From Escherichia coli (lineage in GTDB: Bacteria > Pseudomonadota > Gammaproteobacteria > Enterobacterales > Enterobacteriaceae), in assembly GCF_003334765.1 (NCBI RefSeq), contig NZ_QOWT01000012.1: a stretch of DNA of 64,000 nt; one strand, 5' to 3'. Position numbers and translations under genes: made by a program. Under the pieces are notes generated by a model. It saw only the letters and a program-made list of their open reading frames with translations. It searched no databases and was not told where the DNA came from. Below are positions 53,163-53,291 of this stretch, one piece after another. Within the stretch, counting starts at the first letter, position 1, and each line of letters begins with the position of its first letter.

Positions 53163-53291
53163 GAGATTTCCTCCAGTTTCCTGCCTGGAGTATAGGCAAC
53201 GGCTGTGCACTCTTCACCGCTAAATTCAGCAGATTGCGAGACGCCTTCCAAAGAGATTTAAGTGCCGGGCGACAGGCTCCCGGCAAAGGGA

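Follow-up and report, generated by a model that had tools for sequence, protein, structure and literature searches.

How did yjgR and ahr, which are separated by a five-gene operon in Escherichia coli K-12, come to be direct neighbors in this strain? In K-12 MG1655, the annotated gene order is yjgR-idnR-idnT-idnO-idnD-idnK-ahr-leuX, which bears out the earlier note's statement that the idn genes lie between yjgR and ahr/yjgB. In the window, by which we mean the whole 64,000-nucleotide stretch of E. coli DNA that was analysed, the yjgR start codon (cat on the plus strand) occupies positions 53160-53162 and the ahr stop codon (tca) occupies positions 53292-53294. Therefore, positions 53163-53291 are the exact intergenic spacer, and its measured length of 129 bp agrees with the distance of about 130 bp that had been proposed. 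The junction is composed as follows.

51660-53162, minus strand: yjgR, intact, a HerA-like/DUF853 ATPase of 500 aa (ORF list; RefSeq annotation of identical sequence)
53163-53291, minus strand: ahr-yjgR spacer, 129 bp, the 'empty' allele of the idn site
53292-54311, minus strand: ahr (yjgB), intact, an NADPH-dependent aldehyde reductase of 339 aa (ORF list, RefSeq annotation)
54507-54591, plus strand: leuX, tRNA-Leu(CAA) (ARAGORN)

The window's YjgR has 98.4% amino acid identity to the K-12 protein. In the identical sequence of Nissle 1917 and 03_3013 (100% identity), RefSeq names yjgR and ahr, with zero genes between them. A tblastn search of the 64-kb window with the five K-12 Idn proteins yielded no idn gene, returning only distant paralogs with 21-33% identity, and the membership of the GntII / L-idonate operon (idnK, idnD, idnO, idnT and idnR together) is accordingly missing from the window. 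The absence of idn is a fact of gene order, in which chance plays no part.

We quantified each arrangement's frequency across a survey set of 5,426 complete E. coli genomes. The empty junction is intact in 3,212 genomes (59%) according to a 369-bp junction probe, and in 3,213 according to a 2.8-kb probe. The 5,086-bp K-12 cassette has 2,055 carriers, in which it is exclusively chromosomal and, with few exceptions, single-copy; 2,051 of these carriers (38% of the survey set) have the K-12-type yjgR-idnR junction. The site is therefore polymorphic in a conserved position, with one junction among non-carriers and one among carriers, and idn occupies this site alone across the complete genomes surveyed. 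Because idn is single-copy, chromosomal and joined to yjgR in the K-12 manner in nearly all carriers, the whole genome of the strain almost certainly lacks it; the earlier note's claim that the operon is missing thus stands, by direct search within the window and by extension from the population data for the rest of the genome. The empty site is the majority state and the K-12 arrangement the minority one, and to call idn 'absent' is to take K-12 as the standard.

The idn site is arranged in some other way in about 160 genomes, for example with IS insertions in idn, a UMB200201_11 allele without most of ahr and a fragmentary allele in MLI104K2. One match to the junction probe (H106) keeps the spacer only as far as window position 53241. 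In some Escherichia genomes (L090, L091, TW14182-type YjgR; L087), ahr is not found between yjgR and leuX, or the upstream region is rearranged.

The carriers include K-12, BL21, HB101, HUSEC2011, CFT073 and an O2:K1:H5 APEC strain, and the non-carriers include O157:H7, an O103:H2 strain, ST131 and Nissle 1917. Among carriers, we take K-12, BL21 and HB101 to belong to phylogroup A, HUSEC2011 to B1, and CFT073 and the O2:K1:H5 APEC strain to B2; among non-carriers, we presume that O157:H7 belongs to E, the O103:H2 strain to B1, and ST131 and Nissle 1917 to B2. With these assignments, the idn state is not bound to phylogroup.

We now turn to the anatomy of the spacer. Homology to K-12 extends through yjgR and the first 39 bp of the spacer, is interrupted by a gap, and resumes from the ahr stop codon, which divides the spacer into two parts; the larger one contains a predicted hairpin.

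53163-53201, minus strand: yjgR-proximal 39 bp, common to idn+ alleles; K-12 homology breaks off between 53201 and 53202
53202-53291, minus strand: 90 bp specific to the empty allele; replaced in K-12 by the 5,086-bp idnR-idnT-idnO-idnD-idnK cassette (L001 13561-18646)
53263-53285, minus strand: hairpin UGCCGGG-9 nt-CCCGGCA, from an RNA fold, beginning 7 nt past the ahr stop codon

Read along the coding (minus) strand, the spacer leads from the ahr stop codon through the 7-bp GC hairpin, the conserved block CTCGCAATCTGCTGAATTTAGCGGTGAAGAGTGC, GTTGCCTATACT and the inverted repeat with GGAGG to the ATG of yjgR. The 39-bp part holds a TATACT motif, a CTCCAG...CTGGAG inverted repeat and a GGAGG ribosome-binding site; on the minus strand, GTTGCCTATACT comes before the inverted repeat, which overlaps the ribosome-binding site. 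The yjgR-proximal conserved block, CGCAA..GAATTTA, is located at a fixed distance of 38 nt before GTTGCCTATACT.

The hairpin is a candidate Rho-independent terminator of ahr. Its 7-bp GC stem is kept across species, and in E. albertii, E. fergusonii, C. koseri and C. werkmanii the stem is extended and the loop differs. The T-tail is weak in E. coli, and a T-run follows the hairpin in E. fergusonii, C. koseri and C. werkmanii. Simple consensus scans for promoters and terminators across positions 53000-53450 made no calls, the hairpin included, and the promoter and terminator roles that we assign to the spacer are predictions from its sequence and conservation. If they are correct, yjgR in this strain lies behind the ahr terminator, and not directly downstream of idnR. 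Folded as RNA over its whole length, the spacer does not exceed shuffled sequence in stability (z = 0.02), and a reading of the spacer as a structured RNA was dropped for this reason.

The inverted repeat (CTCCAG-8 nt-CTGGAG, 53171-53190), through its overlap with the yjgR ribosome-binding site, might control yjgR translation. It is kept in the aligned Escherichia and Citrobacter sequences, empty and idn+ alike, with one substitution in C. amalonaticus, and it is not conserved in Enterobacter or Leclercia.

A spacer of this kind may be either an original intergenic region or the scar of a deletion. The window's spacer aligns over its full length, including the 90 bp missing from K-12, with those of four other species, in which its length is 129 bp (both E. 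albertii and E. fergusonii), about 135 bp (C. koseri) or 136 bp (C. werkmanii). The empty site thus has orthologs in related species, as opposed to being a recent scar, and it contains neither residual idn sequence nor a junction that could be derived from K-12. The simplest reading is that the spacer would be the native intergenic region, part of which was replaced by idn. A different insert separates ahr from yjgR in Enterobacter cloacae, Enterobacter sp. Ag1 and Leclercia, namely a gene of about 550 aa that, judging by its sequence, is probably dihydroxyacetone-kinase-like (Dak-like). The CGCAA..GAATTTA block is still recognisable in E. cloacae and Leclercia, and none of the four idn+ alleles examined has it (K-12, CFT073, Citrobacter sp. 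FP75 and C. amalonaticus).

An opposite history would have an idn+, K-12-like ancestor losing its 5.1-kb cassette recently, and in this lineage specifically, through an illegitimate or microhomology-mediated deletion that left 129 bp behind. The 9-mer CCGGCAAAG, which K-12 has at its left junction and the window has at 53280-53288 by the ahr stop codon, is readable as microhomology, and true deletion-type alleles do occur at this site, as in UMB200201_11 and in MLI104K2 with its idnR and idnT fragments. However, a deletion from a K-12-like chromosome cannot yield this spacer, because the 90 bp at 53202-53291 are missing from K-12, and they are orthologous in four other species. The 129-bp spacer also retains no idn remnant, sharing with the cassette only 9-10-mers at chance level, and the junction is identical in 3,212 genomes. 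We set CCGGCAAAG aside as deletion microhomology, as the other 80 bp cannot derive from K-12, and we consider a recent loss very improbable. The chance that the strain carries the operon and that its assembly or annotation collapsed or misplaced it is smaller still, to the point of being negligible: we found no point in favor of such an artefact, yjgR and ahr are both intact, and separately sequenced complete genomes (Nissle 1917, 03_3013, SHP24 and others) have the identical, uninterrupted sequence.

The MLI104K2 allele (L086 8443-9322) has a K-12-type left junction, about 520 bp with A9 and G10 homopolymer runs, and fragments of idnR and idnT at 84-88% identity. Next come 39 bp of empty-type spacer, with a GACGCCT microhomology at the join, and then, adjoining ahr, the final 18 bp of idnK. 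The allele could reflect an assembly problem or be a real recombinant of the empty and idn+ forms; the A9 and G10 runs suggest poor consensus quality, and we did not take the hybrid as evidence.

We next consider how lineages change from one state to the other. Nissle 1917 and CFT073, both of which we take to be ST73, have opposite idn states, empty in Nissle 1917 and idn+ in CFT073. Between ytfQ and valS, a distance of about 35 kb, the two chromosomes have about 5 mismatches; beyond the valS/holC boundary, and as far as leuX, each 500 bp contains 1-33 mismatches, in most cases 5-33 (about 1-6%). Throughout this divergent segment, the window is identical to Nissle 1917.

About 46500-54591: holC-pepA-lptFG-yjgR-ahr-leuX haplotype, about 8 kb, 100% identical to Nissle 1917

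Just upstream, at 44-46 kb, the window and Nissle 1917 are only 95-97% identical, and the haplotype is the footprint of a recombination tract. As the divergence between Nissle 1917 and CFT073 is concentrated in holC-leuX, and as Nissle 1917 equals the window there, this segment was replaced in one of the two strains, flipping its idn state. Both comparisons, Nissle 1917 versus CFT073 and the window versus Nissle 1917, show the state changing hands along with replacement of the flanking core genes.

The comparison of two idn+ strains, K-12 and CFT073, adds a second signature. Their cassettes are only 0.79% divergent, while yjgR and ahr diverge by 5.85% and 4.9%, and the step in divergence falls no farther than about 70 bp from either end of the cassette. 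Between K-12 and E. fergusonii, yjgR is 93.5% and ahr 95.3% identical, a level that the divergence of the K-12 and CFT073 flanks approaches.

The arrangement ahr-idnK-idnD-idnO-idnT-idnR-yjgR is also found in Citrobacter sp. FP75 and C. amalonaticus. A further contig (L095), assigned to Salmonella enterica from the name of its IdnD protein cluster, has ahr-idnK-idnDOTR followed directly by lptG, with yjgR missing and 205 bp between idnR and lptG (L095 9339-9545). The idn genes of K-12 have 77-83% nucleotide identity to those of FP75, C. amalonaticus and the Salmonella-assigned contig, and the flanking core genes have 80-88%. Because the divergence of idn is core-like, E. coli has not acquired idn from those genera in recent times, and both alleles are old. 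The IdnD cluster names also include C. freundii, C. braakii and C. werkmanii, and the type strain of C. werkmanii has the empty site; the site is therefore polymorphic within Citrobacter species too. In Kluyvera intermedia, the same five-gene idn module occupies an unrelated locus. The K-12 cassette contains idn genes only, without an integrase or transposase, and a search for terminal direct or inverted repeats at its ends found only chance-level pairs, on account of which a transposon or island mechanism for the cassette was dropped.

The distribution suggests that the empty site is ancestral and idn+ derived, a polarity drawn from a handful of taxa in which the pure empty site is seen in Escherichia and Citrobacter only, with patchy sampling of the Enterobacteriaceae; the idn+ arrangement beside ahr could be equally old or older. 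Among the contigs listed for YjgR, most belong to distant Betaproteobacteria, and Salmonella, E. fergusonii, C. koseri and C. amalonaticus entered the comparison by way of protein searches and individual contigs. In the reverse polarity, idn+ would be ancestral to Escherichia, Salmonella and Citrobacter, and the empty site would stem from a single deletion or replacement long ago, which homologous recombination then carried from species to species. Such a history would accommodate the fact that E. coli, two Citrobacter lineages and the Salmonella-assigned contig all have idn next to ahr, as well as the core-like divergence of idn and the additional Citrobacter names in the IdnD cluster. It is harder to reconcile with the yjgR-proximal block of the spacer, which is recognisable in Enterobacter and Leclercia, where idn never shows at the site, yet missing from all four idn+ alleles examined, or with the Kluyvera locus, which shows that the module relocates as a unit. 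On balance, we find idn+ ancestry improbable. A wider proposal, which we regard as doubtful but somewhat less so, is that the two alleles form a long-lived, trans-species polymorphism that predates the splits among Escherichia, Citrobacter and Salmonella and is kept by fluctuating selection on the use of idonate or 5-ketogluconate. Within E. coli, the cassette would then have behaved as a discrete unit that recently swept over very divergent flanking haplotypes, recombining at points no more than about 70 bp from its ends.

The account that we prefer, and hold to be very probable, is that the window carries an old empty allele with a native spacer, 90 bp of which were replaced by idn elsewhere, and that the alleles are swapped by homologous recombination. 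The window would represent the empty side of a presence/absence polymorphism that is old and extends across the species at the ahr-yjgR junction, with a spacer composed of the putative ahr terminator hairpin and the yjgR upstream region. The idn+ allele would have been born by substitution of the 5.1-kb idnK/idnDOTR module for 90 bp of the spacer, and both alleles would now segregate in E. coli and Citrobacter. A lineage would change its state whenever the whole segment is swapped by homologous recombination within the core genes on either side, and such switching would be frequent because the site sits in the known leuX recombination hotspot.

That the surroundings of leuX are such a hotspot had been proposed from the missing operon. 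A single indel alone would not demonstrate it; the haplotype comparisons above do, and they agree with published work, in which a region of about 200 kb centred on leuX (K-12 4421-4618 kb) has a strong signal of phylogenetic incongruence and recombination and several integration hotspots (Touchon et al. 2009, PMC2617782). Different mechanisms underlie the variation on each side of leuX: integrase-borne islands on the 3' side of the tRNA, and allele replacement through homologous recombination on the ahr/yjgR side. In the window, the leuX island extends over 54.6-64 kb (54640-64000) and is opened by an integrase.

54682-56592, plus strand: site-specific integrase, 636 aa, unusually long

The island also contains genes for a small recombinase, DUF4062, AbiJ-NTD4, DUF8453, NIPSNAP and DUF1643 proteins. 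Integrase-led islands at leuX differ among the window, Nissle, 03_3013, CFT073, K-12, UMB200201_11, E. fergusonii and C. koseri. As cargo, CFT073 has a type III R-M system, UMB200201_11 has Dpt/Dnd restriction, E. fergusonii has McrBC, C. koseri has a TIR-domain (PF10137) gene and 03_3013 has a P4-like satellite, and the site looks like a defence-island hotspot.

Other segments of the window also vary among strains. The spacer between lptG and yjgR (51542-51659) is 118 bp long in the window, 160 bp in K-12, with a different repeat element, and 256 bp in the Nissle CP007799 assembly (L002 7934-8188), where a tandem duplication includes the 3' end of yjgR. The chpS-chpB toxin-antitoxin pair, located between ytfP and ppa in K-12, is missing here (11945-12325), and Nissle has esiB at that spot. 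The yjgL/argI segment (38000-41000) has 77-95% identity to K-12, compared to 97-99% for neighboring sequence, and CFT073 and Nissle both have an arcA-arcC-argF-yfcC-argR insert near it; these five genes co-vary with idn (PMC8545132).

With respect to phenotype, the strain is without the subsidiary gluconate/L-idonate (GntII) pathway, a known accessory trait whose absence has little importance alone. From the known role of GntII, we infer that the strain cannot use L-idonate or 5-ketogluconate via this route. The locus is of more use as a clean worked example of how gene content flips via allele replacement inside the leuX hotspot, and as a caveat for annotation, where the K-12 order is the minority arrangement at the yjgR-ahr site.

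The known system closest to this locus is the GntII locus of K-12, reportedly described by Bausch and colleagues in the Journal of Bacteriology in 1998, with idnK and idnDOTR between yjgR and ahr/yjgB. The window has the same site and the same flanks (lptFG-yjgR on one side, ahr-leuX on the other), but without the five genes and with the 90-bp native spacer segment in their place. Compared to the tRNA-linked islands at leuX, of which the window has one directly 3' of the tRNA with strain-variable content, the idn cassette is different in kind: it is located on the 5' side of leuX, beyond ahr and thus away from the tRNA 3' end, and has neither an integrase nor flanking direct repeats.

At the population level, idnO, idnD, idnR, idnK and idnT are accessory genes: 83% of pks-positive E. 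coli genomes have them, compared to about 31% of pks-negative ones, and one ST95 clade is without them (PMC8545132, mBio 2021). This is the same polymorphism as the one described here, including its variation within a sequence type; that study reports gene counts only, and the junctions, the empty-site spacer and the outgroups are analysed here. Similarly, the tracts that we observe fit the leuX hotspot of Touchon et al. 2009, from which they differ only in locus-level detail. The finding is an ordinary gene-content difference, a published polymorphism within a published hotspot, and what is new is detail only: an empty spacer that is orthologous across genera, and a sharp step in divergence at the ends of the cassette.
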